A stretch of DNA of 61,878 nt, the filler included, from Sanchytrium tribonematis (taxonomy: Eukaryota): the NCBI GenBank assembly GCA_018985235.1. It is 6 parts of 6 records of this genome, joined end to end, with 100 filler letters (N's around TTAATTAATTAA, not from the genome) between each part and the next. Parts side by side here need not be neighbours in the genome. Positions count along the whole stretch, not along the records: positions 25,161 to 55,603 come from JADGIG010000053.1; 5 more parts are not named here. One strand, given 5' to 3'. Below are positions 176 to 55,703 of this stretch, in pieces. A program made the position numbers and the translations under genes. Under the pieces are notes generated by a model. The model was given only the letters and a program-made list of their open reading frames with translations, was not told where the DNA came from and ran no database searches. Each line of letters begins with the position of its first letter. The stretch's first letter is position 1.

Positions 176-1222
176 TCATAAATTTATTGCCTCATGAATA
201 TCAATGTGGGAAGATGCCTTACTTTTTATATGCTCTATTAGCAAATACGAGTTTCTGAAATCTTGAGCGTCTTCTTTGTATTTGTTCATTATTCTGGCCA
301 ATTTTTCGGACCAAGCTCCTAGATCGCTTGCGCATTTTTCTGCTCCTTTAACGTCTCTCAACCTGAATCCAGTAGACAAGAACAAAAGTAAGCAGCAACA
401 ATAATAAAGTGTTTTACCTTTGAAATATTTGTTTTCGTTATCAATTTTGCTAGAAGTTTTCTCAGAAAGTTCGTAGATGTGTTCAAATATGTTGTATTTC
501 TCCAATGAATGATTATCTTTCGCCATGGAAATCCAAAACAATTTTTTAATGTATTTGATGATTTTAGGTTTTCCGAAGTTCAACGTGGATGCGTTTAACG
601 CAGTGCGATATCCAATAAACATCAACTCTGGGAATACAAAAGTCACATTTTCAATATAATTAAAAATTTGGCTGTCAAAAGATATATACTTCAATTTTTT
701 CTGTATCGTCTCCCCTAAATCATTGCCCAATTTTCCACTATAAATCAAGAGTTCATATATATTTTCATTGCTCAGAAAATCTAACAAATTGTCTTCATAT
801 AAAATAGATTGTAACAATACAAATTGCTGGTAAACAGGAGCTTCGATTTCCTGAGAAATTAGGCCACCGTTTATATCATGTCTATAATAGAAATTACCGT
901 CGGTGTTTTCCTTGTAGACCAGCCACGATGATTCACCACGATCAATTGAAATTTCTAGTTTCTCAATCGCAAAGTTTCTATTGCATATAACATTACGAGC
1001 AAAGTCTTCCAGAGAATAGTCGAAGCCACTTATAGCCAGCTGAAAACGGAGATCAATTGATCTTACATATTCAGTGTCATCAATATCTCGATTTGTCCTC
1101 CTGTTAGGTTTTGGTGGGGTTCGTTCGCGAACTTCTATTTCTTTCCTCGTTTTTTTAGACTTTTCAATTCCGTCGTGACTCTTCTTTATAAATTTAAACA
1201 TTTCTTCGTAATTTCTTTTCAT
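176..1222 (-). CDS. Hypothetical protein
   Basis: Long ORF; first ATG at 1222; no motif recognised. Confidence 0.6.
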   Translation of the reverse strand: MKRNYEEMFKFIKKSHDGIEKSKKTRKEIEVRERTPPKPNRRTNRDIDDTEYVRSIDLRFQLAISGFDYSLEDFARNVICNRNFAIEKLEISIDRGESSWLVYKENTDGNFYYRHDINGGLISQEIEAPVYQQFVLLQSILYEDNLLDFLSNENIYELLIYSGKLGNDLGETIQKKLKYISFDSQIFNYIENVTFVFPELMFIGYRTALNASTLNFGKPKIIKYIKKLFWISMAKDNHSLEKYNIFEHIYELSEKTSSKIDNENKYFKGKTLYYCCCLLLFLSTGFRLRDVKGAEKCASDLGAWSEKLARIMNKYKEDAQDFRNSYLLIEHIKSKASSHIDIHEAINL

Positions 1223-5075: not shown

Positions 5076-6060
5076 ATGCCATATGGTGATCTCTTACTGC
5101 CTCAATATGACCAATCTACTTATATGGGAAGATTAAAACACTTTTTGCAAATAACTTCGCCTTTAAATTTATTAGCATCGGACTCTCAATTAGAGTATGC
5201 AAAAATGAAAGTTATAGAATACCAAGATGGCAAAATAGATCAGACAATATCCAAAGAGGATTATTGGAAGTATGCAAATTTATACAAGGCCACATATCAT
5301 CCAGATACGAATGAAAAGATATTTCTCCCATTTCGAATGGTATCCTAGTCTGATGTAGTCTAGCTATGTCCCAACAAATATTCCGGTTGTTGCATTAATG
5401 CTTATCCCAAATATGAGTACTCTCGGAATCGTGTTATCACAATGGCTAAATCAAAGCGCTAATGTTGGTTTTAATTACTTCAATTCTAACAAGTCGTCAC
5501 CATTGACAACAAAAGATATAGTGGTAGGATATACTGGTGCAGTTGGAGTGAGCTGCGCCATCGCAATAGGAATGAATTCCTTAAAGAATAGTGGTAGATT
5601 GCCAAAAGCTCTGGGACCTTACATCACATTTTTTGCAGTATCTATAGCTTCTACTAGCAATTTGCTGCTTATGAGGCAGAAAGAATTGCTTAATGGTATC
5701 AAGGTCTTCGATAGTGAAGATAAAGAGGTAGGGACATCTAGAATCGCTGCAAAATATGCTATTGGTCAAACCGCGGTGTCTAGACTATTGAGCTCCGTTC
5801 CAGCCTTAGTTGTTCCTCCTACGGTTGTCAATTACATGATAAAAAATCAAGTTTTTAGTATGCACAAAGCGACTCTTAGTCGAACTATGTTTGTGAATTG
5901 TACCCTAGTTGGTTTGTCTTTTTTGACAGGGCTTCCAGTCTGCTTGGCGCTTTTTGATCAAAACGTTCAATTAGATCCATCAACACTAGAAACGCACATC
6001 TCCAAAAGTTTTCAAGAGTTGAAATCTACTGGTTCTGTCAATTTTAATCGTGGATTGTAG
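5076..6060 (+). CDS. FSF1: Sideroflexin (mitochondrial carrier, Fsf1/SFXN), 2 exons
   Basis: YDQSTYMGRLKHF, HPDTNEKIFLPFRM|SSYVPTN across the intron, QWLNQSANVGFNY, C-terminal FNRGL. Confidence 0.92.
5340..5358 (+). other. 19-nt spliceosomal intron
   Basis: GTATCCTAGTCTGATGTAG; removal puts 5359 in frame with the ATG at 5398. Confidence 0.92.
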
Positions 6061-6213: not shown

Positions 6214-6313
6214 NNNNNNNNNNNNNNNNNNNNNNNNNNNNNNNNNNNNNNNNNNNNTTAATTAATTAANNNNNNNNNNNNNNNNNNNNNNNNNNNNNNN
6301 NNNNNNNNNNNNN
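6214..6313. other. Artificial contig linker (N44-TTAATTAATTAA-N44)
   Basis: 100-nt spacer with stops in all six frames. Confidence 0.97.
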
Positions 6314-8139: not shown

Positions 8140-10183
8140 ATGTTTGATGACTTGGGAGAGAAAATATTTGGATCTCATCCAGATTTGAATGATCTTACTA
8201 AAGAAGAGTTAGAACGCGTCAATGCGTACTTGACGAAAGCAAGAAAATATAAATCACGATTTCAGGGGACTTTTCAAATTCAGTGGATGGATGAGATGTT
8301 AATACACACTGGTCCATTCATTATTGCGGATTATAAGCTGGTATTCTTTGTCGACTATGATTATATATTAGATTTAAAGGAATTGACTCAAACACGTAAA
8401 AATATGGTTTTTGTCCTTCGTAGCTGTAAACACCCGCTCTTCCCAGTCAAAATTAGTGATTTAGAAATAGAAATTACTTTTATGAGTGAAGAACACGTTC
8501 AAAGATTCCAAAGAACCATGTTTAATATCAAAAGAGACGTTGAAGAGTTTAGAAAAAATGTCATTACATATAATGCTGCTAGTATATTACAAGCTACATG
8601 GCGCATGAGGCAATCAAGAAGAGATTACATTAAATATAGAAATGCTGTAATATTTATTCAAACGGCTTTTAGACGGAGGAAACACCGATTAAATGACAAA
8701 TTTCAAACCAAATTACGTCAAATTGGCAAATTGCATCCAAAAAGATCTATGATACTTCAAGAATTATACGATACAGAATTAAATTATCTAATTACACTAA
8801 ACACGTGCATCAATGTAGTTTATAAACCATTATTAGCCATATTTGATAATAAAAACCATGTAGAAATCCCAACATCAATGATACAGAGTATATTCTCTAA
8901 TATGGAAGAGATTTATGCCACCCATTGTTATTTTTTAGATCATTTACGTACCTGTTTAGGATACAAGCAAGTATTAAAAACTGAGAGATATACCAAATTG
9001 CCACCGTTTCTGGATATAGAGCAATTTCATTATCAAAAATGGGGACTAGAACCAGGTAGGAAAGTAGCAGAATCGATTCAATGCTTCTCTCTACAAGCAG
9101 AAGTTCCCTATATTCTGTATTGCGTAAAATATGATGAAGCCAAAAAGATCTTTGTAAAGTGTAAAAAGAACCCTGATTTTTTAAAATTTCTAGAAAGCCT
9201 CCAGCATGTCAAATCACTAAAGCGGCAGGATGTAGAATCTCTCTTAATTTCACCAATTCAAAGAATTCCACGATATGAATTGTTATTAAAGGATTTAATA
9301 AAAAATACATGGGATACCCATCCTGACTATGAATTTCTAGTGGAAGCACTTGCTAGTATATCAAAATGTGCAAAAAATATAAATAGAGCCAAATCTTACA
9401 AGGAGAGTGAAGATCAAATTAAACAGCTCAAAGTGAAAATACGAAGTTCTTCAATGGTATATCTCACTTATTTAGCATGGTAATCAAAGAATGTATATTG
9501 GAGAAGGTAAATTAAACTATTCTCACCATAATAATCCCATGAGATCCGTCTATGTTTTTGCATTAAGTGATCAAATATTGATTACAGATTTAAGAGAAAG
9601 CAAGTTGCAACAAAAGAAGTTTAAATTTATAGAAAATATATCCCTAGAAAGTGCTCAATTAGAAGCTAGCCCAGAAGATGCAAAACGACTCAAAAATTAC
9701 ATATTTAAAATCAAAGTCAAAAATACATCCAGTTTAGATCCAATCATTTATTCCTTTCAATGTGAGACACTAGAAGCATATACAAAGTGGATAGGTGATA
9801 TTTCAGAGGCAGTTGGGTGTTGTATTACTAAAAGTGATAATAAAATGGGGGATATTTCAGAATTACTTTCATGGACTGAAGATGAATTGGGATTTTCTGT
9901 AGAAATGACTAGAAATAGAACACCAAGTGGTTTGAATACAAAATCAATTCGATCATTAGAAGAAGATACACCTAGTATGAATAGAGGCAGTAGCTCTAAT
10001 TCGAAGATTTCATTAGATGGCAGCAAACAATCTTTGGATCGCAAATCCTCTCACTCCATTCCTGCTTCTCCAATATCTCCACTTAGAATAGGTTCTAAAT
10101 TTAGCATTGAAGAAGATGACCATTCTCAAAAGAAGCCGGAAAGACTACAAAAGAAGAGACCCTCAAAAGCGTCAATAAATTGA
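8140..10183 (+). CDS. IQ-motif RhoGEF (DH-PH), 2 exons
   Basis: IQ motifs (LQATWRMRQSR, IQTAFRRRK); DH motifs QELYDTELNY and LISPIQRIPRYELLLKDL; PH domain follows intron 9457-9475. Confidence 0.88.
9457..9475 (+). other. 19-nt spliceosomal intron
   Basis: GTATATCTCACTTATTTAG; joins the DH exon in frame to the PH exon (HGNQRMYIGEG). Confidence 0.9.
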
Positions 10184-12498: not shown

Positions 12499-12598
12499 NN
12501 NNNNNNNNNNNNNNNNNNNNNNNNNNNNNNNNNNNNNNNNNNTTAATTAATTAANNNNNNNNNNNNNNNNNNNNNNNNNNNNNNNNNNNNNNNNNNNN
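12499..12598. other. Artificial contig linker
   Basis: N run with a central TTAATTAATTAA. Confidence 0.97.
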
Positions 12599-18780: not shown

Positions 18781-18880
18781 NNNNNNNNNNNNNNNNNNNN
18801 NNNNNNNNNNNNNNNNNNNNNNNNTTAATTAATTAANNNNNNNNNNNNNNNNNNNNNNNNNNNNNNNNNNNNNNNNNNNN
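18781..18880. other. Artificial contig linker
   Basis: N run with a central TTAATTAATTAA. Confidence 0.97.
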
Positions 18881-21572: not shown

Positions 21573-22056
21573 TTTCACAAAATATGCTTGAATCTATTTG
21601 TAATTAAATTGACCACTCACAGATGCTGGTGAAAAACTGGCAAGGGTTTGCAAATTTAAATTGGCGAATCAACGATTTGGTGGTAAATAGAGTCAATGTA
21701 GGGTTAATTTGCAAATATTTCGCGGTGTGGTATGATTAACGTAATTAAATCCGTAAATAAATCAATTATAAAAATGGAGATACAAGATTGACAAATGAAG
21801 CCAATTCAAGTATTTATGGAAAGATATAGAAAACAAGCAGCCATGGATCGACGTTGCAGATATTATTTGAAATACACGATAATCAAGCATGATACGCCAT
21901 TTCTAAAATGAGATGACGCGCGCTTCTTCTGAATCTAAATTCTATTCCATCAAGTAACTACCCATTTAATTAATAATCAATAAATAAATTATTGAATCGT
22001 AGCAACTTCACGCAGATCCATTTTCTCTAAATTGATTGGAGACCCCTAATTTCAAA

Positions 22057-25000
22057 ATGGATCCATCCGTTAAAAAATCTTTGACGAATGCCATAAATGA
22101 CAGTGGCAAATTAATTGAAATGATAAACAATGTTTGGCCTGATCATACTCATGATAAGTCTGTCAATCAACTCATTGAAATATTGATTAAATTCAAAAAT
22201 ACTTTAAAAATCATTCATTCGGAATCAACATTGAATCCTTATTCATCTGATCTAGATCGACTAAAAATTGAACTGGATGATATTCAGCAATATCTTATCG
22301 GTTATGAGAGTAAATCAAAAATAGGTCGATTTACCACTTTTAAAGAGTATAAATTGAACAGATGTATTAAAACATTATTAGAAATATGGAATGATATTAA
22401 AAATAAACAAGATATGGCACTAATTGATTCGCAAACAAGTTCTAGTACCTCCCAAGATAAAGCACCATTCTCAATTGGCTACATTGAAGATGTACAGTTG
22501 AATAAAGCAGAATTGATTGGAAGTGGTGCTTATGGTAGGGTTTATCTTGGAAAATGGCAAAATCAACAAATTGCCATCAAAGTGATTGAAGGTGTGCCAT
22601 TTATCAGTCCAAACAGCACCCAAGAAGTATCAGATGTTCTAGCACTGAGCAAATCAGTATTAAGGGAAGTAAAAGCACTTGAGAAATTAATGAAGAGTGT
22701 GCATATTTGCAATTATATCGGAGTTTCTTCAATTGATGGTGAATTGGGAATTGTGATGGAATATATTGATAATTATTCACTACACACGTGGTTGCATCTA
22801 TTTCCAAGACATAATGGCAAATCTCTTACAAAACCACAAATTAGAGAAATTCAATTGGGAATTGCCCGTGGTTTAGAGTACATGCACAATCAAAAGATTG
22901 CCCATAATGATCTCAAACCAGCCAATATCATGCTAGATTCTCAATTTAATCCCAAATTAATTGATTTTGAAATGGTAAGAATTTTAAGTACCACTAGCCA
23001 ATCAAGTGGTAATTCCATGTATGATCATCTGGGTACAGATCTTTGGAGGGCACCGGAGCATTGGCAATTCACTCAAAATACTCTCAGCAGTCGTAAATCA
23101 TATCCATTTGCAGGAGATGTATTTTCATTTGGCATTGTTTTAGGGGAAATGGCAACAGGCAAAATACCATGGGAGGGATTTACAAGCAAGATAATCGAGG
23201 TTTCAATTTTTAACCGCATGCGCCCATACTACAAACATCAGATAGAATCCAATTTATTTCAAATTATTGAAAATGCATGGCAACAGGAGCCAAAAGACAG
23301 ATTAGAGATAAATGAAGTATTGAAGCAACTGGAAGGATTGGAGACACACGAAATTGAAAAAATCAAGATTGTTGATCGATCAGCTACTCAATTATTCAAC
23401 AACCTGAAGAGACTGCTTGAGAATTCAGATTACTCAAGTTCTGATGAATTTGAGGAATGTTTGATTAAATTATGTCACTCCATGCCTATAGAAACTATTT
23501 TTGATTATTTGGGGACTTTGGAATTGTTCAAAATGAGTATATTGACTGCCCACATTTCAGATCCACTTTCAATTGCAATAATGAAATATTTTGGAATAGG
23601 TTTCAAACAAGACTATCAAGAAGCACTTGTTGCATTTGAAGAGTGCAATGACGCTGTAGCTAATATATTTATTGGAATATGCTATTTAAATGGCGATGGG
23701 GTTGATTTAAGCTTAGAAGGGGCAGAAAAGCATTTTTCAAAAGCAGTCAGCTTAGATCTAGCATGTGGGCATTATTATATGGGTTTATACTATGAAAAGA
23801 GAGAGAACCACTTCAAGGCATTACAAGAATATGAAATAGCAGTAGATTTTAAATATGTAGCAGCGTATTACAAATTGGGATATTTCTATGAAAATGGAAT
23901 TGGTATGGCAAGAGATTTTACTAAAGCAGCCCAATATTACCAACTGGGTGCGAAATATGGACATCCTTTGAGCTACTATGGACTGGCACATTGTTTCGAA
24001 AACGAAATTGGAGTTGAGAGAGATATTGAAACAGCCATCGAGTATTATAAAATAGCATCCAGATTGGGATGTAAAGATGCATATGAGAGGATGAGTCAAC
24101 TTGTAGAGTTTGATTTGAAGCCAAATGAAGAAAAAGTGGATATTATAGACGAATCTGTTAGTTGGGGTGATTTAGATAAATTAGAAGCATCGGACATTCA
24201 ATTAAATGAAGTATTGTCTGAAAACCAATCTTCAAAAGTCATTTCTGCCAAATATAAAGATGCAGATGTGGTGATCAAACTATTAAAGGGAGAAACAAAT
24301 TCTGATTTACTATCATTTAAGAATGAATATGATTTATTAAAGATTTTAAAGAGTCCATATATCATTCAATGCATTGGACATTCAAAAATTGATAGTCAGT
24401 TTGCAATTGTTACAGAATTGATGGATAATTTCACACTTTATTCATGGCTTCATCAATTTGAATATGAAGTTGAAATTAGTCGATTTCATGCTAATATTCC
24501 TAAAATACAACACCAGATTGCACAAGGCATTCAATTTATTCATTTTAATGGATTTACGCATAATGACTTGAAATCAAGTAATATCATGTTAAATCAACAT
24601 TTTGATGCAAAAATTATAGATTTAGGAAGTGCTACATTGATTAAAACATTTACATCAGGTACTAGAATCAGAGGAACACCCCAGTGGAAGGCACCTGAAT
24701 ATTGGACCAATTCGTGTTTGGATCCCATAAAAGCAGATATTTACTCGTTTGGAGTGATATTGGGTGAAATAGAATATAAAGAAGTACCTTGGAAGGATCA
24801 TCTGGTCCAGGATATTGAAAAAGCAGCCAGCAATGAAACCAAGCCATTTATGTCAAATAACTCAGAAATGGGTGATTTAATTGACAAATGCTTGGCGACA
24901 GATCCAAAAATGAGACCTACTATAAAAGAATTAATAGGTTTGATGAGAACTACTGCAAATTTGTCTCCAAAAGAAGCAGAAACTGAAATTTTTGAGCAAT

Positions 25001-25060
25001 TTAAATTTTCATCAATCAAGCCGTATGACCCATTAAATGGCATCAATACATCTCAATTTA
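22057..25060 (+). CDS. Tandem TKL-type kinase protein: N-terminal helical domain - kinase - Sel1 repeats - kinase (3' truncated)
   Basis: GSGAYGRV/IAIK/HNDLKPAN/DFE/WRAPE; Sel1 repeats (LGYFYENGIGMARDFTKAAQYYQLGA); second kinase VIK/HNDLKSSN/DLG/GTPQWKAPE. Confidence 0.88.
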
Positions 25061-25160
25061 NNNNNNNNNNNNNNNNNNNNNNNNNNNNNNNNNNNNNNNN
25101 NNNNTTAATTAATTAANNNNNNNNNNNNNNNNNNNNNNNNNNNNNNNNNNNNNNNNNNNN
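25061..25160. other. Artificial contig linker
   Basis: N run with a central TTAATTAATTAA. Confidence 0.97.
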
Positions 25161-27964: not shown

Positions 27965-30028
27965 ATGTTGTCTACTTTTCGTTTTAATTTGGATAATGTT
28001 CAAAGCGATGCTTTTGTCCGACACTTTATTGAGTGCGAAAAAGGAACTATTGATAAGAGTGGATGGATAATTATTGATAAGGATAATCAAACCATTGATC
28101 CGAAAACTCGAGACCAATACTTAAATATTCAATTTTTAGCAGATGTTGCTTTTCTTAAAAGGACTTTTGATTTGCAAAGATACTTAGTTTTTGATTCACT
28201 GGATAAAGTTGAACCGCTAAAGTCTCTCATTTTGAATGTACCTAATGAATTTAACTACATAGACATTTCTGGTAAATTTATTTTTTTAAGCACAACGATC
28301 GGAAGTAAAATGGCAAGTCTTGAAAAAATCACTAGTATACTAAAGGAAGGAGGGGCTATCGTTTATACAAAATTAGATAGCCCAGATGATTTTTCGAAAA
28401 TGGACTATTGTATATTCAACTCTATAAAAGGCGAAGACCTTATAAGAGCCTATGACTCAAAATGTACAATTGGAAACGTTTATTGGCTAATGTCCATTCT
28501 AAAATTTGGGTTTTCTGATCCTCGAAAGCACCAATTTTGGATGCCGTATCCCCACAAGGATGCAGGATGTCACAAGTTGCTCATTACAGTAACTAATGTA
28601 GAAGGTGTAGCCAGGGAATACATCCAACACATGTGTCAACTTATAAATGCTGAATTTACCGGCGTTCTTACCAAGCATTGTACTCATTTAATTTGCGGAA
28701 GGATGGACGGCCACAAATTTCAGAAAGCCTTAGAATGGGGTGGAATCAAATTAACCAATGTTCTTTGGATTGAGGATTGTTTTACAAATTGGGAATATAT
28801 AGACCCTGGCTTACATCAATACCAACATATGTCAAAAGTTCTTAGGGCCGAAGAACAACTCGGTAATACCCCCGCAAAATTCGAACTCTTTGAAACTTTT
28901 GTTGAACTAGAGCGCAATAGATTAGAACCGCAATGTGTCGAATTGGAAGTTAGAAAAACAACTGAACGGTATTCCTTTGGAGAATCTTTAGAAACAGACA
29001 GGTTTTCAAAAAAGTCTAGCATTGAGAATATCAACCCTCAACATGCTAATTTGTCTTTAAATTCGATAGAAAGTATTGAAAGTGCAATATCAAAAGACGT
29101 TTTAATTATGCCCGAAGAAAGAAATTCAGATCAAACAAACATTAAATTATTTGAATTAGAAAAATCAAGAATTAGAATTAAGGACACTGTCAACGTTAAC
29201 GCGAATTTTCAAGATAAACTTAATACGCCCAAAGGAACCCAGAATTTCTTGGAGCAGCCCATTAGCCAGACCCCGTTCTCTTCTTTTGCACAGTCTAAAA
29301 TATTAAGTAATGAAGTCGAAAACAAAAGAGAACCATCAGCAACTTTGACCACGCCAACACACCAGTCTACTTCAAATACTCACTCCAGGAGCCCTAGTCC
29401 ACTGACAGATCCAAGAAAGAGAAATAGCTCCACAAACTCTAGTACGAGTAAAAAGAAGAAAGGCCCTAAATTTAAACTTTTATTCACAAAAGGTGAGCCA
29501 ACCAGTGCTCAAAAAAAAATAATTAAAAGTTTTGGTTTTGAAATGGCAAAAGATTTGAAATCATGCACTCATCTAATTTCAGACACAGTAAAAACTACAG
29601 AAAAATTTCTTTGTGCTGTTGGAATGGGAAAAGAAATTGTGGTGCCAAATTGGATAAATACTACTGGGAAAGTCGGCACAATAGCGAGCGAAACTATTTT
29701 TCGACCGAAATCTGATCAATTTGAAGATTTGACACTTAGTAGCTCGATTGAAAAATCTCGAGAAATTCATCTTTTTGAGGGCAAAAAGTTTTTGATTTCA
29801 AAAGAAAAAGGACTTCCTCCTGTCGAAGCATTGACAAAAATGATATCCGCTGGAAAAGGCAAAGTAGTTAAAGTTTTAAAATCGTCAGATCTGGCCGCAA
29901 CGTATTATGTTTGCCCAAATAATGAGGATTTCTCTACGGTAAAAAATAACTATCCTGAAATCTCTATTATGACAAAAGACGAGCTGTTTAAAGCCATTCT
30001 TTTTCAGGAACTCCCAAATCAAGAATAA
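27965..30028 (+). CDS. Multi-BRCT DNA-damage scaffold (Rtt107/Brc1/PTIP-like)
   Basis: ITVTNVEGVAREYI...CTHLIC...KALEWG...VLWIEDCF; C-terminal tandem BRCT CTHLISDTVKTTEKFLCA. Confidence 0.8.
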   Translation: MLSTFRFNLDNVQSDAFVRHFIECEKGTIDKSGWIIIDKDNQTIDPKTRDQYLNIQFLADVAFLKRTFDLQRYLVFDSLDKVEPLKSLILNVPNEFNYIDISGKFIFLSTTIGSKMASLEKITSILKEGGAIVYTKLDSPDDFSKMDYCIFNSIKGEDLIRAYDSKCTIGNVYWLMSILKFGFSDPRKHQFWMPYPHKDAGCHKLLITVTNVEGVAREYIQHMCQLINAEFTGVLTKHCTHLICGRMDGHKFQKALEWGGIKLTNVLWIEDCFTNWEYIDPGLHQYQHMSKVLRAEEQLGNTPAKFELFETFVELERNRLEPQCVELEVRKTTERYSFGESLETDRFSKKSSIENINPQHANLSLNSIESIESAISKDVLIMPEERNSDQTNIKLFELEKSRIRIKDTVNVNANFQDKLNTPKGTQNFLEQPISQTPFSSFAQSKILSNEVENKREPSATLTTPTHQSTSNTHSRSPSPLTDPRKRNSSTNSSTSKKKKGPKFKLLFTKGEPTSAQKKIIKSFGFEMAKDLKSCTHLISDTVKTTEKFLCAVGMGKEIVVPNWINTTGKVGTIASETIFRPKSDQFEDLTLSSSIEKSREIHLFEGKKFLISKEKGLPPVEALTKMISAGKGKVVKVLKSSDLAATYYVCPNNEDFSTVKNNYPEISIMTKDELFKAILFQELPNQE

Positions 30029-30043
30029 ACTCCGTGTTTGAAA

Positions 30044-30214
30044 ATGTCTACACTGTCTTTTCTTGGAATGAAGGTCTACAGAAATAATTCGATACAGCCC
30101 TTTAAACCATTTTTATATGCAGGAGCATTCATGTTGTTTGCCACCTATAAAGTTAGAAAAGCTGGTATGGCGAGTGAAGCGAATGCCAAAAGCGAAGAAA
30201 ATTCTACTCACTAA
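30044..30214 (+). CDS. Probable mitochondrial ATP synthase subunit i/j (Atp18-like), 56 aa, below the ORF-track cut-off
   Basis: MSTLSFLGMKVYRNNSIQPFKPFLYAGAFMLFATYKVRKAGMASE...; P..PF..AG plus one TM as in Atp18; TAAATAAA at the stop. Confidence 0.55.
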   Translation: MSTLSFLGMKVYRNNSIQPFKPFLYAGAFMLFATYKVRKAGMASEANAKSEENSTH

Positions 30215-30344
30215 ATAAATGGATCTTAACTAATGCGACATCGCGAAACAAACTGCGAATCTATCAATCAGGGTATAATTCTTACTCAAGTGGAATATTA
30301 TATTGTCCCATGAAACTCCTTGAAATCATACCTTGATTTTTGCC

Positions 30345-33300
30345 ATGTACTTTCAAGAAGGCGAATTTGTAACGGTCAAAGGAACTACATGTAATATTTT
30401 GTCTCTAGAAAGCGGGACTTTGCAGGATGATGCAAATGCATTTGTTTATAAAATTAAAATGCAGAATGAAGATTTTGCATTGAAAAGCTGGGTACAAACC
30501 GAAAAAGCAATATACAACGAGATACACTCACTTGAGAGAACGGGAGGACACCCAAATATTGTTGAGCATGTAAAAAGCGAGTGTAAACAAAATGAGAAAT
30601 CATTAAATGGCCTAATTGTTATGGAATTTCTGGCTGGTGGTACATTGAAAGACTTGATAGCGAGTCGAAGCAATCTTATCGAAAATGCAAATTCTACTAT
30701 GAATCCCGGTGCTTATTTGAAGGATGAGCAGTCAATGCAAATTTTTACAGCCATCACATCAGCAGTGGCTCATTTACAGGCACTAGAACCACCACTTTAT
30801 CATTGGGACATCCAGCCTTCAAATATTATGATGGTTGTGAGCTCCGGCCAAATACCTCAAAACGATTTTACCTGTGTTAAACTTATTGATTTTGGAAATA
30901 GCTTTTCAACACCTATTAACCCCACATCCTTGTCTAGCAAAGAAATTGATGAAAAAATTGAAGTTTTTAAAAATACCACCAACTTATCTTACAGGGCACC
31001 TGAAATGGTAGCAATGAATGCTGTTATTGATGGTCAGGCAGATGTATGGGCTCTCGGATGCCTTCTTTATAGCCTGCTCTACCTTGAAGATTACTACAAA
31101 ACTATCTCCGATATAACATCAGGAAAATTTATTATCAAAACAACGCCCAAATATCCTCCTTACTTTGAAATTCTTTTGAGTAAAATCATCTTAAAGGAAC
31201 CCGATCGCAGGATGAAAGCTTTTCAAGTTCTGTCACAATGCAGAGAGTTTTTCATCGGAGCCTTACCAAGTTGGATTACTCGTAAGTACAAGCCTCAAGC
31301 TTATAATTCTCCAAATTCAATTACTTTATCTACTTCTGTTAGCAAATCATCTATACCAGCTAGTACCAATGAAGCACCAGGAATTGAATATTTCGATGAG
31401 CATATTCTTGATATTGCTGGTTTTTCAGATTTGAATAATCCGATGAGACAAATTAATTTTCAATTTCCGGATGAAATTTGCGTCTCGGTTGACAAAGTTG
31501 TTTTTACCATACCTTTGTCTATAGAAGATCAGTCTGCAAGCAAACACAATGTATCTGCAAGTATTGCTATATATCATCCTGCGGAGCACTTGCTTGTAAC
31601 TTGTTTTAATAATTCTTTGGATGTTTTTGATGTAGCTAAAAAGCAAAGGATTCAATCACAGGCCTTACCAACCAGTGAGGTCATATTTATGTCATGGCTT
31701 CATGACACTACCATATCCCTCATTACGAAAGAAGCAGTATACCATATGGAAATAGCTGGCGAGAATGAAATTATAGAGGAAATGTGTGGAATTTTTGATA
31801 GTGTCACAGAAAATAATATCGCTTATTACGACATTGACAGCAACGAAAATCCACAATGGCTGTTGATTGTCGCACCCAATACTAAAGAACCACCAAAAGG
31901 ACAAATTCAACTTCATAGCATGGAAAAAAGTGGAAGCCAGATAATTCCAGGAGAGACCGCGCGTCTTTATAAGCCAAATGGAAAATTAGACTTTCTAAAG
32001 TTGTTGCTTGTAAATAGAGGGCAGAATCACACTTATGTACCTTAATCTAATGTAGTTACATGTAGTTCCTGTAATTCAAGGAGCTGATCAGCCTTCAAGT
32101 ATTCAATTACCTGTTGGTAAAAATGATTCTGTTTGTTCTTTAGAAGTAGATCATGCTTTGAACAAAGCCTATTTATGCACGTATTTTGGCCAAATTATTG
32201 TTTACGATATTCCAAACAAAAAGCTTATATTTGAGGGTAAACTCTTGTCTAGTGGGTTCATTAAATCTCACCTAGATGTGGAAAGGGATCATTTGTTTGG
32301 TGTTGACAAAAAAGGGAAGCTATATAGGATATCTAATCGGAAAGCATCAGTTCGGACATCGGGTAAGGCGAAACAACCGAGTCCTGTAATCGCATCAAAA
32401 CCTAGTTCAAAATCTTTACCAAAGCAGAATTCGATACCGGCTGCAAATAAGGCGCAAGTAGCTTTAGACTTCAATGTGTACTTGGAACGGGTAAGTAACA
32501 ATGAAAAAATAAGCGAATCAGAGTCTGTCAAGTTTGCGCGATACGGTAATATTCTAGGATTATCTCAATTGGTTATTAGTTATATAGAAGAAGGTCGTTT
32601 GGAATTGAGCGAGGCCCTCGGTGATGAGCTCAATGAAGGGACAACCAAGTCTCAAGAGGTTGCATTGCTTTGTTATAAGGGAAGTAACTGTCACAGAAAA
32701 GTTCTTAGAATAATGGCCGAAAAGAAAGATTTTAGAAGATTAGTTAATTATTTGAGAACTGTGGAATATGCTCCTGAAGATCATTACATTATGGAAGAAA
32801 TTGCTTTTGCTGATACCGACATTGCGGAAGAATACGCTAGTAGGTATTATCAAACCAGTCAAAGAGAAGTTTTGCTTGAAAAAATCCTAGAAATTATGAT
32901 CCAAAAAAATTGCGATTTGGACGCGATTGCGTTTCTACAAACAACATTGACTTCAGACGATGCTGAGTACTCAGGACTACAAACCCAATTGTTCAAATTG
33001 ATGTTTGCAAAAGATGTAAAGGAAGCCGATGAATTATTGCATTCAAACAAATATACACAGTATGATAAATGGACTGTTAGCAACTTGTGTATTGAAAATG
33101 GGCTCTACTCAAGAGCTATCAGCCTTTACGCTTCCAGAGAATTGCTTTTTAAGAGTGACAACAGACTCTCTGCCAATCCGGTTTACACAGAGTTAAGCAA
33201 ATTTCTTCTAAAAGAAGCTAATCCAAAATATTGGGGAAATGCCATTGATACCCTTTTAGACAAAGAAGATGACCAAGAAAGACTAGGTAGTTATGAGTTG

Positions 33301-33837
33301 TTCGAAGTGAACGAAGAAAGCCAATTTGGATGCTTAATGCGTGCTATTTTGGATGGTTCATTCTTGGCAGGCATAGACGATGTCAAAGTTATATATAGTC
33401 TTCTAGAATCGCTTATAAAATACAAAAAGAAATTTTGGCTGAAGCATGTTTTAAGCAATATAATTAAAACCAAATCAGCATTTGCCAACAATATGACAAT
33501 TCAAACGTTAATGTGTCTCTCCACCTTGTTGTTTCGAGAGACAGAAGATTTTCAACCTGCTATAACAAATATGAGTGGATACGATCACTTTACAGTGGCC
33601 AAGGCAGCAAAAGTCATGGGTCATGTTGAAGATTCTTTCCGGATTTATGAGAGATTTAGAGAATTTCCACAAGCTGCAGATGTTCTGGTTTATGACATTC
33701 AAGATTTGGCAAGAGCATTGGAATTTGCGGACAAAGTCGATAAGGATGAAGTTTGGCCAATTGTAGGAAAGGGCATTCTGGAATCTATGCGCCAAAATAC
33801 AAAATTGAGGCTTGAGTTGCGAAAAGCGGCCGAATAA
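30345..33837 (+). CDS. NAK (Ark1/Prk1/AAK1/GAK-like) kinase fused to a truncated clathrin heavy chain-like region, 2 exons, about 1157 aa
   Basis: Kinase: ALK, GHPNIV, PPLYHWDIQPSN, DFGNS, TTNLSYRAPEMV, DVWALGCLLY. Clathrin-like: VIFMSWLHDTTISLITKEAVYH, GQIQLHSMEKSGSQIIPG, LELSEALGD, LQTQL...YDK...LC..NGLYSRA, IQDLARALEFADKVDKDEVW. Confidence 0.85.
32037..32055 (+). other. 19-nt spliceosomal intron
   Basis: GTACCTTAATCTAATGTAG; removal joins the two ORFs in frame (32056 to 32158 is 34 open codons). Confidence 0.9.
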
Positions 33838-33893
33838 ATCGTTGCAATAACTTGAGCCTTTATTTTGAGTTTAAATTTTTTTATCTAAACAAC

Positions 33894-35129
33894 TTAAAAG
33901 TCGTCAAACAAGCTGACTGCAGTTTGTTCAGCTAATTTTTGAAGCTGCGAATCTTCTGTGTAATTTGACTTTAAATCAGAAGTTGGAAAGACCAATTCGT
34001 CCTCACTTGAATCATCGTGTTTGCTGAACACAAAATTAACCCATTCTTGAACTGATTGAAACATAGAAGCATCACCTATAGTCTCAAAGTATTGTATGGC
34101 GCCTATAACTGATTCTGGAGCTTTGAAATTCACAGGCAATTCTAAAATCTCAAAACCACGCTGAAGTGGTGTGAATCCTAGAAAATTGAAGTCCATCGGC
34201 AAAACCATACTTGGAGTTTTTTGAGAATCTGATCGATATTGCTGCAGCCCAGGGGGAAAGTATTCAAATTTTTTTCCAACCAAAAGAAATAAAATATACC
34301 GCATAGTGATTTTATAGTCAACCTTGGCCGAGAAATTGAGAAGCTCTGTCAATATTTTTTCATTATCTGAAAAGACCGCACAGATGAGCGCAATCCAAGT
34401 AGTTTCATCCTCTGATAACTGCGAATAATGCTGCCTAACACTGTTAATAAAATATTCAGAATACACATTCTTGAGACTTGTTTCACTCATATTTGCTTTT
34501 ACGAGAAAAATCAAAGACATTTCTAAATTACATTCTGTAGGAGGAATGGACGGCAATTCTGTAACGCGATGATCCACAAACTTTTTCAAGTTCTCAACTG
34601 CCATATCAGGTGATTTGGGCCCATACAAGCTTCTTATATATCTATACAGAGCTTCGAGATCAGAATTGAGCAATGTCGCCACGACTGCCATTTGATGGTG
34701 TACCATTCCATTTTGAGGGTAAATATTTTCTGCCTGTTTGTAAAATTGCATGGACATTTTAAAGCTTCCATTCACAAACTGGTCCCTGTATCTTGCAAGA
34801 TCGCCCATGTAAATATAACAATTAAAAACCAATGCTAAAGAGTGTGAATTTAATTCCATTCTTGTAAGGACCACACTGAACCAACCGATCAAGTAGTTAA
34901 CAAAGGCAGTGAAATTTGACACGCTCAATGTTTTTTTTGAGATCTTTGATCTCTTGTCCATAATTTGTTTATAAATTATTTTTTTCCACAATTTTTGTAG
35001 TAATTGATACGTTTGGTATTCTTTGGGATACTGAATAGCGAGAAAATGAGCATCTAGATATTCTTCGAGAGTTGAAGTGCCTTTTAAATGCATTTGAAGA
35101 ATATTTTGAACTTCAACAGGGTCATTCAT
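33894..35129 (-). CDS. Est1/Smg5-7/Ebs1-family TPR protein (no PIN domain seen)
   Basis: LWKKIIY, CYIYMGDLARYR, FYKQA..IYPQNGMVHHQMAVVA, ALYRYIRSL. Confidence 0.85.
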   Translation of the reverse strand: MNDPVEVQNILQMHLKGTSTLEEYLDAHFLAIQYPKEYQTYQLLQKLWKKIIYKQIMDKRSKISKKTLSVSNFTAFVNYLIGWFSVVLTRMELNSHSLALVFNCYIYMGDLARYRDQFVNGSFKMSMQFYKQAENIYPQNGMVHHQMAVVATLLNSDLEALYRYIRSLYGPKSPDMAVENLKKFVDHRVTELPSIPPTECNLEMSLIFLVKANMSETSLKNVYSEYFINSVRQHYSQLSEDETTWIALICAVFSDNEKILTELLNFSAKVDYKITMRYILFLLVGKKFEYFPPGLQQYRSDSQKTPSMVLPMDFNFLGFTPLQRGFEILELPVNFKAPESVIGAIQYFETIGDASMFQSVQEWVNFVFSKHDDSSEDELVFPTSDLKSNYTEDSQLQKLAEQTAVSLFDDF

Positions 35130-40629: not shown

Positions 40630-40674
40630 ACATAATAAATTTATTTATGATACAAATTAATTATACCCATTTTG

Positions 40675-41505
40675 ATGTCGCGTGAAAATATAAATTGGTC
40701 TATTTTCGAGCAAAAAGAAAGCGAAGACAATTGGGATAAAAGAGACAAAATCATGAGGTTAGTTGCTCAACAAACTCCAAAGTTGGAAAGAAATCAAATT
40801 GAATATTTATGCTCTACAATTTCAAGTTTAAGGACGGCTTTACAATTGTCTGGTTTAGCAGCTTTAAAGTCATTAGTTATTGTACATAAAATGGACCCAT
40901 ATCATGAAGTTCTTTTAATAACTTTATTTAAAGTAATTGGTGGAACGCGAAAAATTCCCTCGAATGAAGCCAATAATGTCGCGCATTTAATTATGGAATC
41001 AGTGACTCCTAATAGTAGAATTTTAAACCTACTTTTAAATGCTTCCAATGATAAATCTATCGATGTAAGAACTTCATCTACTGTATTTTTGACCATTTTT
41101 TATCAGCAAAGCTTGGAAAATAGCTGGCTTGAAAAAAGCAACTTATTGGAAAACCTTGTCTCGGCAGCACTTAGATTGACCCAAGATGCAAGTCCAAGTG
41201 TCAGAGAGAAAGCAAAGCTTTTGACACGATTATTGGACACATTTAATCCAGAATACAAGCCTGGTGTCAACATACCTAGAAGGGATTTTGGCAGGCGATC
41301 GGCACCGGTCACTCCGCTTTCTACAAGACTTCCATCTTTAGCACCATCCGTTCTCTCGGAGCCATCCTCTTCGCTCAAAATACCTGTCAAACGATATTCT
41401 CAACCAACTTTACCCCAACTTGAAGGGACCACGACCAACAGAAGCAATATCCCTTCTTACGCTGAAATGAGAAGAACTCCAACAACCCCCACTAAACCTC
41501 TTTAA
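40675..41505 (+). CDS. Short CLASP/Stu1-like TOG-domain protein with a Ser/Pro/Arg tail
   Basis: KESEDNWDKRD, SLRTAL, DKSIDVR, DASPSVREKA; paralogous to 44934-46704. Confidence 0.78.
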   Translation: MSRENINWSIFEQKESEDNWDKRDKIMRLVAQQTPKLERNQIEYLCSTISSLRTALQLSGLAALKSLVIVHKMDPYHEVLLITLFKVIGGTRKIPSNEANNVAHLIMESVTPNSRILNLLLNASNDKSIDVRTSSTVFLTIFYQQSLENSWLEKSNLLENLVSAALRLTQDASPSVREKAKLLTRLLDTFNPEYKPGVNIPRRDFGRRSAPVTPLSTRLPSLAPSVLSEPSSSLKIPVKRYSQPTLPQLEGTTTNRSNIPSYAEMRRTPTTPTKPL

Positions 41506-44492: not shown

Positions 44493-44933
44493 AGTTGATT
44501 TTGAAAACTCGAAAGCTTGTCGTCGCAACATGAGTTTCAAAAAAGATAATTTTCGTTATTACAAAACTACAACCTCCTGCTTATTGGTGATTGTAAATAC
44601 ATTTATTCAATTGAGCGTTCTAGTTTGAAGCAAAAGACTTGTTTGCCTTCAATACAAGTTTCAAGAATTACTAAGCCAAATTAGGAAAATAAAATAATAC
44701 AAGGTTGATTTTGTTTATCGTTTCCATAAAAAATTCCACCTCTTAAAATTGAGAACATCAGCAATAGTAAATTGAAGCTTTTTGTAAATCACTCTAATGT
44801 ATCAAAAACACCCTTAATTTTCAAAAGTGAGTATTACCATTTTTAAAATACACATGTAAACCTCATGTAATTATAAATTAAATTAGTAAAATATAAAAAG
44901 AATCTGAAGTATAATACAGTTCCCCACGTTTCG

Positions 44934-46704
44934 ATGGACTGGTCTACTTTTAATGAGAAAGAATCGGAATTTAATTGGGAAAAACGAGATGCTTTGATGA
45001 AGCAACTACAAGAAAATCCAATTGAAATAGATCGCGTTCAATTAGATTATCTTTGTACAACTATTAATAGTCTACGGACAACTTTGCAATTTAGTGCTTT
45101 AAACGCAGTCGAGTCTATCATTAAAAATGTGCCAATTGATAACTATGCAGAAATATTGCTCGCAGCGTTATACAAGGTCATAATTGGCTCTAAAAAAGTT
45201 GTTTCCCAGCCTGCCATTAATGTCGCGACTTGTTTAATTCAGCATACGACTCCAAATAATCGAATCTTGGGAATATTTTCCAATATGTCCCAAGATAAAA
45301 ACGTTGTGTCGAGGACCACGACTGTTCTTCTCTTGACTCACTTTTACAACAATACTTTGCCAACAAATTGGCTTGTGAAAGCAAATACAATGGATTTATT
45401 CTGTAAGATCTTGGACAGATTATTACATGACGCTAGTTCATCTGTAAGAGAGCAAGCTCGAACTTTATTTCTTTTATTTGAATCTACATACACTGTTGAG
45501 TCCAATTTTATTTTGCAAAATGTTCAAGATCATATCGCCAAAGCCATTCTAAGAGAAAGAAGTAAATTAGGATTTAACAAAGTTGAAAAACCAGCCAATC
45601 CAATTGAGGCCATTTCTTCTCCCAAAAAGACGCGATCTTTTGGAGGTTTAAAGCAGAATAGAAGTCGATCGCAAAGCAGGGAGTCCTTGAATTCTAATGG
45701 TTCTATAAAATCAACGCCATCTGCGTATCTTTCTACACCACAATCAAGAGACCCAAATGAAACTGAAGCTTTTTTTGATGAGGTCATGGGTAAGATAAAT
45801 AAGTCGTTTGGAGACCTACACACTGATCTGGCTACTCTTGTCCCGAAAAAAGTGTCTGGAAAAGCTAATATTGAAGGCCAAGAAATATTACTAGTTCCAG
45901 AAGGCCCCAAAGACATTGACATCCCATCAATCGGGGAATATAATATCGAAATTGCTTTAAGTGATGGAGATGTTGAAAATGAAATAGGAACAATACTATC
46001 AAGAACAGAAGATAGATTTTCTATAGAAGATTTTAATAACCTCCTTTCGCTGTCTAAACAAAATCCTATAATAGATGAAGCGACATCAAAAATTTGGAAC
46101 GTCCCCACAACTAATGCCTTGCTTTACAAAATATACCAAATATTGAATGAAACTGAAGAAGATGATTCAAAAGAAGATGCTTTCATCATCTTACAAGAAA
46201 TTGTGGTGAATCAAGGGAAGCTTTTATCTGGAAATGAACCAGAAGTTTTATCTTACGGATTAAAATACCATCTGTTTGATGTTGATTTTGTAAGATATAT
46301 TAATTTAGGTCAAAGCAGCTGGTTTTTATTGCTTTATGGCTTGTATTGAATGCTTAGAACCATCTCGAATGCTTAAATGTGTCTTCGATATCATTCAAAA
46401 AGGAATTGAAGACGAAAATGAGTCAAATGAGCTTCTTGTAGACTTACTGGAAGCTCTTGAAGTTTTGATCAAGAGATATCCATCTGAGGGTTTGAATGAG
46501 AGGAAATCGGCTCTTGTCAAACTCATGTTGTGTGTCATAAATCATCAAGAACCCGCTGTTCGACTATTTGGATATCGAAATCTTGTGTTACTATACCAAA
46601 GATGCGGCTCGAAAGTGTTGAAAGATATTTCTGGACTAATTGATTCCCATCAAGTCGATATATTTCAGGTATACTTGTCTGCGGAAAGTTCGAAAGTTAA
46701 ATAA
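44934..46704 (+). CDS. CLASP/Stu1-like protein (TOG domain, SR linker, C-terminal HEAT region), 2 exons
   Basis: KESEFNWEKRD, SLRTTL, QDKNVVSR, DASSSVREQAR; C-terminal HQEPAVR...LVLLY. Confidence 0.8.
46290..46308 (+). other. 19-nt spliceosomal intron
   Basis: GTAAGATATATTAATTTAG; removal puts 46309 in frame with the ATG at 46336. Confidence 0.9.
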
Positions 46705-51500: not shown

Positions 51501-52613
51501 TAAGTGCTACAAATCTAGTTTGTTTCGACCCTCAAGGAAAAATCATGAAGTACGATACTGTTGGTGACATATTGAAAGAATTTTATAATTTGAGATTGTC
51601 TTATTACCGAAAAAGAAAAGTTGCAATGCTGAAAAATATTTCTCAAGACCTTGATATAATATCTCAAAAGGCGAGATTCATACAGCTCATGATTGATGAT
51701 ACCCTCATTATTAAAAATAAGAAAAAAGACACAATTTTTAATGAGCTCGAGTTATTAGGATTTAAAAGAATGGAGGATATCAAAAATTGTTCCGACGAAA
51801 ATCTCGGTAGTTACAACTACTTGTTAAGCATGCCAATCTCTAGTTTTACCAAAGAAAAAATTGACACTCTTTTGAGTGAAAAATCAGGCAAAGAAACCGA
51901 GTTGAGTGAATTACAAGGGAAAACTATCGAAGATTTGTGGAATTACGATTTGGACAAATTTTTGGAAGAACTTCAGAATAAGGAAACCGCCGCCATATTA
52001 GAAAAGCAACGCGACAATAGGAAAAAAACCAAAGGCAAGTCTAAAGTTATTTCAAGTCAAAAAACTATTGAGAAATCTGAAATATCTTTCTTCAAAAGCT
52101 CGAATCTAAAAAAAGATTCTCAATCAAAACTAACTTCGCATTTTCAAACTTCGGCTCCAGTTGATATTGCTGAAAGAATTAGATTAAGACTTGAAAGTCA
52201 AAAAATTAAGAGTAAAAAAGATTAATTTAGGATTAAGTCAGTCTCCCGATAAACCGAATTCTGAGAAGCGACCTTTGGAAGAAGCTACTAGCCCATTATC
52301 AAAGAAGAAAAAAGTTGAAGTCTCTTCCGATGTCAATTTCGATGATGATATCCAAATAGTCGATATAAAGCCTGTCACAAAATCGAAACAAAAAATTATT
52401 AAGAAAAAGAAAGATAGTTTTATGGAATCTGAAAGCGGGATTAGTCTAGACGAATTGAGCGAATCAATAGATATTCCCAGAACGGCACCTCCAAGAAGTC
52501 GAAGTTCAAGAAAGGCAAAAAATAATATTGCAATCGAATCAGATGACACTGCTTCAGATGCAGAATTGTTTTCTGGAGCTTCTGAATCTCAATCGTCCTA
52601 TATGAGTGACTAG
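48578..52613 (+). CDS. TOP2: DNA topoisomerase II, 2 exons
   Basis: YQKKTQLEHILLRPDTYIGS, GGRNGYGAK, LTEGDSA, PLRGK, YYKGLGTS, SASARYI; charged CTD joined by intron 52212-52230. Confidence 0.97.
52212..52230 (+). other. 19-nt spliceosomal intron
   Basis: GTAAAAAAGATTAATTTAG; removal gives KIKR-LSQSPD, in frame with ORF 52191-52613. Confidence 0.88.
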
Positions 52614-55603: not shown

Positions 55604-55703
55604 NNNNNNNNNNNNNNNNNNNNNNNNNNNNNNNNNNNNNNNNNNNNTTAATTAATTAANNNNNNNNNNNNNNNNNNNNNNNNNNNNNNNNNNNNNNNNN
55701 NNN
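55604..55703. other. Artificial contig linker
   Basis: N run with a central TTAATTAATTAA. Confidence 0.97.

Follow-up and report, generated by a model that had tools for sequence, protein, structure and literature searches.

The stretch of DNA considered here, hereafter the window, is a joined sequence of 61,878 nucleotides from Sanchytrium tribonematis, with a GC content of 0.346 and the character of a compact eukaryotic genome with tiny introns. On its plus strand, at positions 30345-33837 (all coordinates refer to the whole joined window), it harbors a gene with a single 19-nt intron, the 1157-residue product of which joins a kinase domain of the NAK type, the terminal propeller of clathrin heavy chain (CHC) and a short clathrin leg. 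This fusion architecture is almost certainly real. The reading that we favor, with a probability of roughly 0.45, is that the protein represents a non-trimeric clathrin mimic that would bind adaptor tails, its dead kinase fold serving as a second grip on NAK substrates. The features of the gene are given below, where P0001 and P0201 are homologous metagenome proteins, the latter with a structural model, and where pLDDT is the predicted local distance difference test score of that model.

30345..32036, plus strand: exon 1 (564 codons), with the kinase-like domain, a linker and the first part of the propeller; its start coincides with residue 1 of P0001
30345..31277, plus strand: kinase domain derived from NAK kinases (AAK1/BIKE/GAK/Ark1), likely a pseudokinase; from Pkinase and PDB matches and a motif table, with borders from the P0201 model
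30801..30824, plus strand: catalytic loop HWDIQPSN; Asp and Asn retained, HRD Arg replaced by Trp and Lys by Gln
30933..30977, plus strand: NAK-type activation-segment helix (ASCH), helix 187-200 in the P0201 model; the anchoring acidic residue is replaced by Val
31278..31382, plus strand: Ser/Pro-rich linker, predicted to be disordered (pLDDT <50 at P0201 306-342)
31383..32340, plus strand: clathrin terminal-domain beta-propeller (CHC ~5-330), split by the intron; sequence and P0201 model match
31614..31649, plus strand: clathrin-box strand; aromatic 91 and basic 96/98 retained, anchoring Gln89 replaced by Asp
31854..31952, plus strand: arrestin-box residues W164, L183, Q192 and I194 (vertebrate CHC numbering), identical in 6/6 members tested
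32037..32055, plus strand: 19-nt GT..AG intron, phase 0; junction colinear in homologues
32056..33837, plus strand: exon 2 (593 codons and stop), with the propeller end, a linker and the alpha-solenoid
32341..32421, plus strand: low-complexity stretch replacing the clathrin helical linker (CHC ~331-400), predicted to be disordered (no CHC window 331-420 scores; pLDDT <50 at P0201 647-688)
32491..33129, plus strand: clathrin ankle and first leg repeat (CHC ~421-635), from profile matches
33130..33399, plus strand: helical bridge over an internal deletion (~270-290 CHC residues, two repeats gone), from profile windows
33400..33783, plus strand: leg repeat corresponding to CHC ~991-1121 and the end of clathrin homology, from profile windows
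33781..33834, plus strand: family-specific C-terminal helix, 75-88% identical to P0001 and P0201

The kinase domain and the start of the propeller lie in one uninterrupted open reading frame (ORF), as had been stated in a preliminary description of the locus. ORF1 (30345-32045, 566 aa) has a Pfam Pkinase match at residues 36-297 (E 2.8e-25), and its residues 356-541 match CHC 16-201 among PDB sequences (E 6e-13) in the same frame, with no stop between them. ORF2 (32056-33837, 593 aa) has a Pfam Clathrin match (E 4.9e-26), and CHC 421-630 and 1006-1117 are matched within it. Three Pfam families had been expected beforehand; Pkinase and Clathrin are both found, but Clathrin_propel has no match in the gene, though the propeller is recovered by PDB sequence and fold searches.

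Near the ORF break there are 31 GT..AG candidates, of which three leave the frame open, and the 19-nt one at 32037-32055 gives the protein of 1157 residues. The other two, of 46 and 55 nt, were set aside because they would remove residues that are conserved in homologues. P0001, which is intron-free, aligns straight over the 19-nt junction and in register, and the junction is also colinear in P0201 and P0053, in agreement with the intron originally proposed to join the rest of the propeller and the solenoid to ORF1. Candidate introns of this length are not confined to the fusion gene: 19-nt GT..AG sequences link seven ORF pairs within the window, this gene included, and in a sideroflexin gene the candidate joins Pfam positions 84 and 85 exactly. 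The other candidates are found at 5340-5358, 9457-9475, 46290-46308 and 52212-52230 on the plus strand, and at 56296-56278 and 43833-43815 on the minus strand. Given this recurrence, gene callers that ignore introns will break up many of the organism's genes. In the public collection the fusion gene is entered in two parts, P0051 (566 aa) and P0054 (374 aa), divided as expected of an intron-blind ORF caller. Read support over the kinase-propeller junction comes from a 12.4-kb Logan contig of run X1, which covers 29500-34500 with zero differences but does not count as independent, as X1 may be the source of the window DNA.

The same fusion is found as one open protein in four other records, and hence is not an artefact of assembly or splicing. 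A search with ORF1 among proteins of 992-2830 aa gave 50 matches, one of which, P0001 (1146 aa), is 53% identical along the entire query, contains both modules and is colinear with ORF1 and ORF2. With P0001 as query, 1.84 billion representatives yielded 1170 matches, and the best 150 of these, together with their cluster members, provided the further carriers that the preliminary description had suggested looking for: P0053 of Amoeboradix gromovi (1124 aa), P0055 of Paraphysoderma sedebokerense (KAI9140412.1, 1268 aa) and P0201 from a metagenome (1150 aa). In Blastocladiella emersonii the short clathrin is present in P0056 (KAI9184543.1, 1555 aa), the gene model of which is complete but without a kinase domain, and P0093 and P0076 are additional short-clathrin members with sequences that start inside the propeller. 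When 322 proteins were screened, kinase and clathrin matches occurred together in 11, six of which belong to the fusion family, while the remaining five are unrelated and have a C-terminal kinase.

In a tree of five family rows and 20 normal CHCs the fusion family forms a single clade (100/100 support) with a sanchytrid-type and a blastoclad-type branch. The window protein groups with the A. gromovi and metagenome proteins. Sanchytriomycota has been placed as the sister of Blastocladiomycota (PMC8371127), with which the two branches agree, and the fusion likely dates to the common ancestor of these phyla. All named carriers are zoosporic fungi. No relative was found in JGI metagenome contigs (0/69 and 0/73 pattern matches in two scans), and a B. 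emersonii propeller query returned its own sequence alone among 7167 candidates. This last search also missed the known relative P0055, and thus the missing matches from Allomyces, Catenaria, Coelomomyces and chytrids show nothing.

The gene might instead be an artefact or a decaying relic, arising from misassembly, a wrong intron, or a pseudogene from two duplicated genes. Long branches in all of the trees would fit such an origin, as would a metagenome copy that a frameshift around residue 467 breaks in two (P0200 and P0052, otherwise equal to P0201), the result of either an assembly error or a recent loss. It is nonetheless highly improbable, given the presence of the fusion in five independent records, its domain-wise conservation, a gene tree that equals the species tree (family support 100/100) and codon GC that is even along the gene (GC3 0.31-0.33). 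The folded parts are 53-68% identical to P0001 and P0201 whereas the linkers are 18-42% identical, which indicates that all three modules are under constraint.

The clathrin module is clearly, by its sequence, a derivative of clathrin heavy chain. The family profile matches CHC with an E value of 1e-96, and profile windows place the family at CHC ~20-330, 400-635 and 990-1120. The terminal domain is recognizable as a seven-bladed propeller by sequence, profile and model. With 60-residue windows, no colinear score is obtained at 631-900 or beyond 1140 in any of the 6/6 members, such that ~270-290 CHC residues, equal to two repeats, are gone from within the leg, and Pfam detects two Clathrin stretches versus seven in full-length CHC. 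Clathrin homology ends at ~CHC 1120-1125, which removes the proximal leg and the hub; as regards the trimerization domain, no profile window within 1231-1650 scores in 6/6 members. A three-copy self-association prediction for the C-terminal 242 residues of P0001 was uninformative (score 0.00, run without an alignment and outside the calibration of the tool). The light-chain-binding site, which we take to lie in the proximal leg, would belong to the missing part. A possible fungal-clathrin origin is not rejected by the approximately unbiased test (p 0.089), and the free tree puts the family on a long branch outside the opisthokont CHCs.

Structure prediction followed by a fold search had been proposed as a check on the fusion, and its outcome is in keeping with the sequence matches. 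An AlphaFold2 model of P0201, made with a 94-row alignment (pLDDT 83, predicted template modeling score 0.41), consists of a kinase (1-300), a disordered segment (306-342), a propeller (343-646), a second disordered segment (647-688) and a solenoid (689-1149). The modeled kinase matches AAK1 (Z 34.4, root-mean-square deviation 2.1, 284 aligned) and residues 343-648 match the clathrin terminal domain, CHC 5-332 (Z 33.0, deviation 2.5, 299 aligned), though these matches are not independent of the sequence evidence because the alignment held NAK and CHC rows. Among atlas neighbors clathrin comes first, with Vps18, Vps11 and Vps41 found later.

A further record, P0088 (1041 aa, beginning within the propeller), has the same CHC end point as the family but retains the middle repeats. 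It has in common with the family a Ser/Pro-rich stretch after the propeller and derived propeller residues, and is placed as its sister with a support of 99 in the Shimodaira-Hasegawa-like approximate likelihood ratio test (SH-aLRT), in a quick, long-branched tree. P0088 may be a surviving evolutionary intermediate or, alternatively, just part of a normal clathrin that evolves fast; provided that its terminus is genuine, truncation preceded the internal deletion.

The best-kept parts of the protein are the ankle and the 1001-1130 repeat, which are 60-68% identical to P0001 and P0201, and 32% identical to P0055 versus 20% for the propeller. This conservation would suit a chain terminator that inserts into the lattice, where its ankle and leg repeats would pack on triskelia, cap or bend coats and bring the kinase-like domain into the lattice, since ankles are described as crossing beneath the hub and binding auxilin (PMC8805674). 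The same review reports that an engineered fragment of terminal domain plus distal leg is not incorporated into coats, and the internal deletion takes out much of the distal leg, so that chain termination is quite improbable.

The kinase domain was assigned to the NAK family in the preliminary description, and this assignment stands. The top 12 PDB sequence matches are AAK1, GAK and BIKE (E 3e-19 to 2e-17), as compared with 1e-7 for the best non-NAK kinase, and a search with the family profile gave NAKs at 1e-32 to 1e-28 and NEK1 at 1e-18. Between DFG and APE lies an insert as long as in NAKs; in the P0201 model it contains a helix at 187-200, a partly circular observation as NAK rows were in the alignment, which corresponds to the ASCH, an activation-segment helix defined for NAKs (PMC4780864). 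Some details of the kinase motifs need correction: the catalytic loop is HWDIQPSN and not HRDxK, the "TT" before YRAPE is one residue off, and the P+1 Thr is Asn.

These changes form part of a wider decay, as is apparent when the five kinase-bearing copies of the family are compared with 25 NAKs in a motif table. The beta3 Lys, the HRD His, the loop Asn, the DFG Asp and the APE Glu are retained in 5/5 copies, and the alphaC Glu in 4/5. The HRD Arg, found in 25/25 NAKs, occurs in 0/5 copies, and the loop Lys (with one Arg instead), the P+1 Thr and the NAK glycine pair are likewise each at 0/5 versus 23-25/25. The catalytic Asp is present in 3/5, having gone from P0001 and P0053, the kinase domains of which are 53% and 38% identical to the window copy. 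A salt bridge between the HRD Arg and an ASCH Glu is described as locking the active NAK state (PMC4780864); across the five copies the Arg has become W, W, W, L and F and its partner V, Y, Y, Y and W, giving a hydrophobic pair throughout. The domain is nevertheless 53-60% identical to P0001 and P0201, on par with the other folded parts. At the level of the family it is probably a constrained pseudokinase that may bind nucleotide, and weak activity of the window copy is possible.

A working kinase, in which the propeller would hand adaptor tails to the active site and so replace the clathrin stimulation needed by AAK1, is an unlikely alternative. It would draw on the window copy, which retains K47, E59, D155, N160, DFG and APE, as does P0201 and, largely, P0055, as well as on the ASCH helix in the model and on the activation of AAK1 by clathrin (PMC4780864). 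It has to contend with the loss of the loop Lys, P+1 Thr, HRD Arg and glycine pair in 5/5 copies, with the loss of the catalytic Asp in the close relatives P0001 and P0053, and with a separate Ark1/Prk1-type kinase in A. gromovi (PMC8371127). The preliminary description's view of a kinase carrying its own terminal domain is not supported in this form, the catalytic machinery having decayed in 5/5 copies, with the Asp gone from 2/5, and the B. emersonii model being kinase-less.

The presence of normal counterparts, which had also been raised as a point to check, is answered for A. gromovi by entries in supplement 4 of PMC8371127. These include, apart from the fusion gene, both a CLTC match (E 0, score 1346) and a K08853 Ark1/Prk1-type kinase, whereas the fusion gene is tagged merely as a weak clathrin with a score of 107. 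The fusion is consequently an extra gene in this organism. In file 8 of the same paper, the rows for presence of chc1 and ark1/prk1 show a 1 for B. emersonii as well as for the two named sanchytrids, an entry that the fusion alone could satisfy.

The clathrin terminal domain has four adaptor sites, anchored by Gln89, Gln152, Gln192 and the Royle box (PMC5182127, PMC11543927), and site lists from these papers (Table 2 in the former) were used to score six family members. In the arrestin box W164, L183, Q192 and I194 are identical in 6/6, which makes four of its seven conserved positions, against a background of 16/208 (P 7e-4). The clathrin box has 0/8 positions identical and 5/8 similar (P 0.008), its hydrophobic and basic character staying in place, and identity is 0/7 for the W box and 0/5 for the Royle box. 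By residue, Gln192 is kept in 6/6, Gln89 and Gln152 each in 1/6, and the Royle residues in 0-1/6. Gln192 is also present in all three of the more distant records P0093, P0076 and P0088. Here it appears that, among the four sites, the arrestin box is the one chiefly kept by selection.

How the parts would work together can be outlined as follows. A shortened duplicate of CHC and a likely inactive NAK-type kinase, held in one protein, would restrain normal clathrin coats as they assemble, or set the timing of that assembly. The propeller would catch peptides of the clathrin-box type, as in the AP beta hinges, epsins and AP180, through its arrestin box, and more weakly through its altered clathrin box. 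With no hub it could not polymerize, and hence would compete with triskelia for adaptor peptides. The flexibly tethered kinase fold would hold NAK substrate loops, such as those in the AP mu chain and of the Pan1 or epsin type, shielding rather than phosphorylating them, perhaps with ATP binding retained. The short leg may act as a spacer, or may contact the lattice or a different partner. AAK1 is reported to bind clathrin and to be stimulated by it (PMC4780864), and PDB 9f8t is a structure of the clathrin terminal domain with the AAK1L tail, from which it follows that the fused partners are natural interactors. A "clathrin mimic or coat regulator" had already been suggested in the preliminary description, in line with what the sequence leads us to favor here.

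A number of observations weigh against this reading. The window kinase retains the beta3 Lys, alphaC Glu, HRD Asp and DFG; the usual rule defines a pseudokinase by loss of at least one of the beta3 Lys, HRD Asp and DFG Asp, and while P0001 and P0053 qualify, the window copy, P0201 and P0055 do not. The Paraphysoderma kinase domain is very diverged, and in a single-sequence search P0055 matches ULK2 and PAK1 (E ~1e-11) before AAK1 (1.6e-8); it joins the sanchytrid kinases at 98 SH-aLRT, but this is a long-branch join in a quick tree. The kinase is missing from the B. emersonii model and from the three records that start inside the propeller (P0093, P0076 and P0088). In these same three records S185 and basic 188 are each kept in 1/3, while within the family arrestin-box K245 is lost and F216 has become Leu. 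Folding may be what preserves W164, L183 and I194, and the six members are non-independent (four being sanchytrid-type), such that the site P values overstate the signal. Finally, a constitutive inhibitor of coats would be costly, and tight regulation has to be assumed.

Rather than a brake on clathrin, the protein could be a lineage-specific scaffold or minimal coat, akin to a Vps41 or protocoatomer rod with partners of its own, for a membrane task of zoosporic fungi such as zoospore cleavage, encystment vesicles, or membranes of the flagellar base or side body. A propeller followed by a short solenoid is the protocoatomer layout, consistent with Vps18, Vps11 and Vps41 being among the atlas neighbors; the family has its own set of invariant residues as well as a new, conserved helix at the C terminus; it is retained even in reduced sanchytrid genomes of 10-11 Mb; and every named carrier is zoosporic. 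The kept surface residues, though, are those that bind ordinary adaptor peptides, and searches of low sensitivity turned up no member in chytrids, which form zoospores too. Such a scaffold therefore seems doubtful, if worth bearing in mind.

Returning to the favored clathrin mimic, its likenesses to known systems are partial. The fusion protein resembles AAK1, BIKE, GAK and yeast Ark1/Prk1 in its N-terminal kinase domain, its NAK activation-segment helix and its best sequence and fold matches, but differs from them in its decayed catalytic residues and in having a clathrin piece in place of the long disordered NAK tail; no DPF, NPF or clathrin-box motifs are found in its linkers. Its propeller, ankle and leg repeats follow one another as they do in CHC17, yeast Chc1 and CHC22. 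However, CHC has 1675 residues, against ~800 for the clathrin part of the fusion, which is ~20-25% identical to normal CHC, has its helical linker replaced and two repeats deleted, lacks the proximal leg and trimerization domain, and has lost the W and Royle boxes. The paralogue CHC22 is, as described, full length, unlike this clathrin part. In animals, CLHC1 is a protein with a clathrin linker piece. Vps41, Vps18 and Vps11 share the combination of a propeller and a clathrin-type solenoid without a hub, but are far more distant than CHC.

A functional parallel may be drawn with TDD, an engineered piece of clathrin made up of the terminal domain and the distal leg (Chen et al. 2020) that is reported, via the review PMC8805674, to stay outside coats and sequester AP-2 and SNX9. 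Like TDD, the fusion protein is predicted to be a non-trimeric terminal domain with a partial leg; TDD, by contrast, is artificial, has all four binding sites and no kinase domain, and the W box, used by the TDD-derived Wbox2, is a site lost in the fusion family. On the kinase side, AAK1L1 of Trypanosoma brucei is described as a putative pseudokinase of NAK descent that carries HRN and DFN changes and takes part in cargo uptake and endocytosis (PMC10952953), and P0001 also carries Asn at the position of the HRD Asp. Unlike the fusion, AAK1L1 is stand-alone, with a disordered tail, a DPF motif and no clathrin module, and has an independent origin.

Both parts of the protein are known, and it is the combination that appears to be new. 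As the preliminary description had it, no NAK-clathrin fusion is known to have been described: full-text literature searches, for which subscription journals are mostly outside coverage, found neither a kinase-clathrin fusion nor so short a clathrin. No such protein is seen in the available part of PMC4022609, which deals with clathrin heavy chain and Blastocladi, and the B. emersonii genome paper (PMC9730499) mentions clathrin 0 times. Four features go beyond the preliminary description: two repeats are deleted inside the leg, the members end at a common point, binding sites are kept selectively, and the family spans two fungal phyla.

The unrelated clathrin-kinase fusions with a C-terminal kinase are Iris pallida P0062, P0203 and P0204, P0193 and P0104. 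The Iris proteins combine CHC 363-780 (in two copies in P0062 and P0204) with a kinase of receptor-like type; P0193 has an MSP domain, CHC 362-760 and a kinase similar to those of Iris; and P0104 has CHC 4-880 and a kinase of Ser/Thr-Tyr type. The plant fusions bring to mind integrated-decoy immune kinases. Another joining of a NAK to an endocytic module is seen in P0129 and P0045, which are protist NAK kinases with an ANTH domain. Within the window, a 56-aa ORF with one hydrophobic stretch lies directly upstream of the fusion gene (30044-30214, plus strand); it has no Pfam family at 0.001 and by eye presumably resembles fungal ATP synthase subunit j, which Pfam does not confirm. A 1026-aa frame at 22036-25116 (plus strand) encodes two kinase domains with Sel1 repeats in between, and two genes with CLASP_N domains lie within 6 kb (40651-41505 and 44877-46349, both plus strand). 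Five pairs of 44-N runs around a 12-base core are found at 6214-6313, 12499-12598, 18781-18880, 25061-25160 and 55604-55703, none of them near the fusion gene.

Few eukaryotic proteins are as conserved as clathrin heavy chain, the known paralogues of which are full length. That two fungal phyla have kept one without a hub, even where the genome has shrunk to 10-11 Mb, points to a level of coat control that has gone unrecognized. The chances are about even that early-branching zoosporic fungi possess a second, hub-less clathrin, shaped by duplication, truncation at a shared point and deletion of two repeats, that was joined to a dead regulatory kinase and acts as a single-chain decoy or minimal coat in which one adaptor site has been selected. 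The family provides a natural experiment on whether the four terminal-domain sites have distinct jobs, and another on how clathrin regulates AAK1-type kinases, a question called unsolved in PMC4780864. The fusion is also a probable shared character for Sanchytriomycota and Blastocladiomycota, and the laboratory model B. emersonii carries its kinase-less form. If the protein is truly a hub-less clathrin decoy or minimal coat, it would be a kind of coat component undescribed in any eukaryote.

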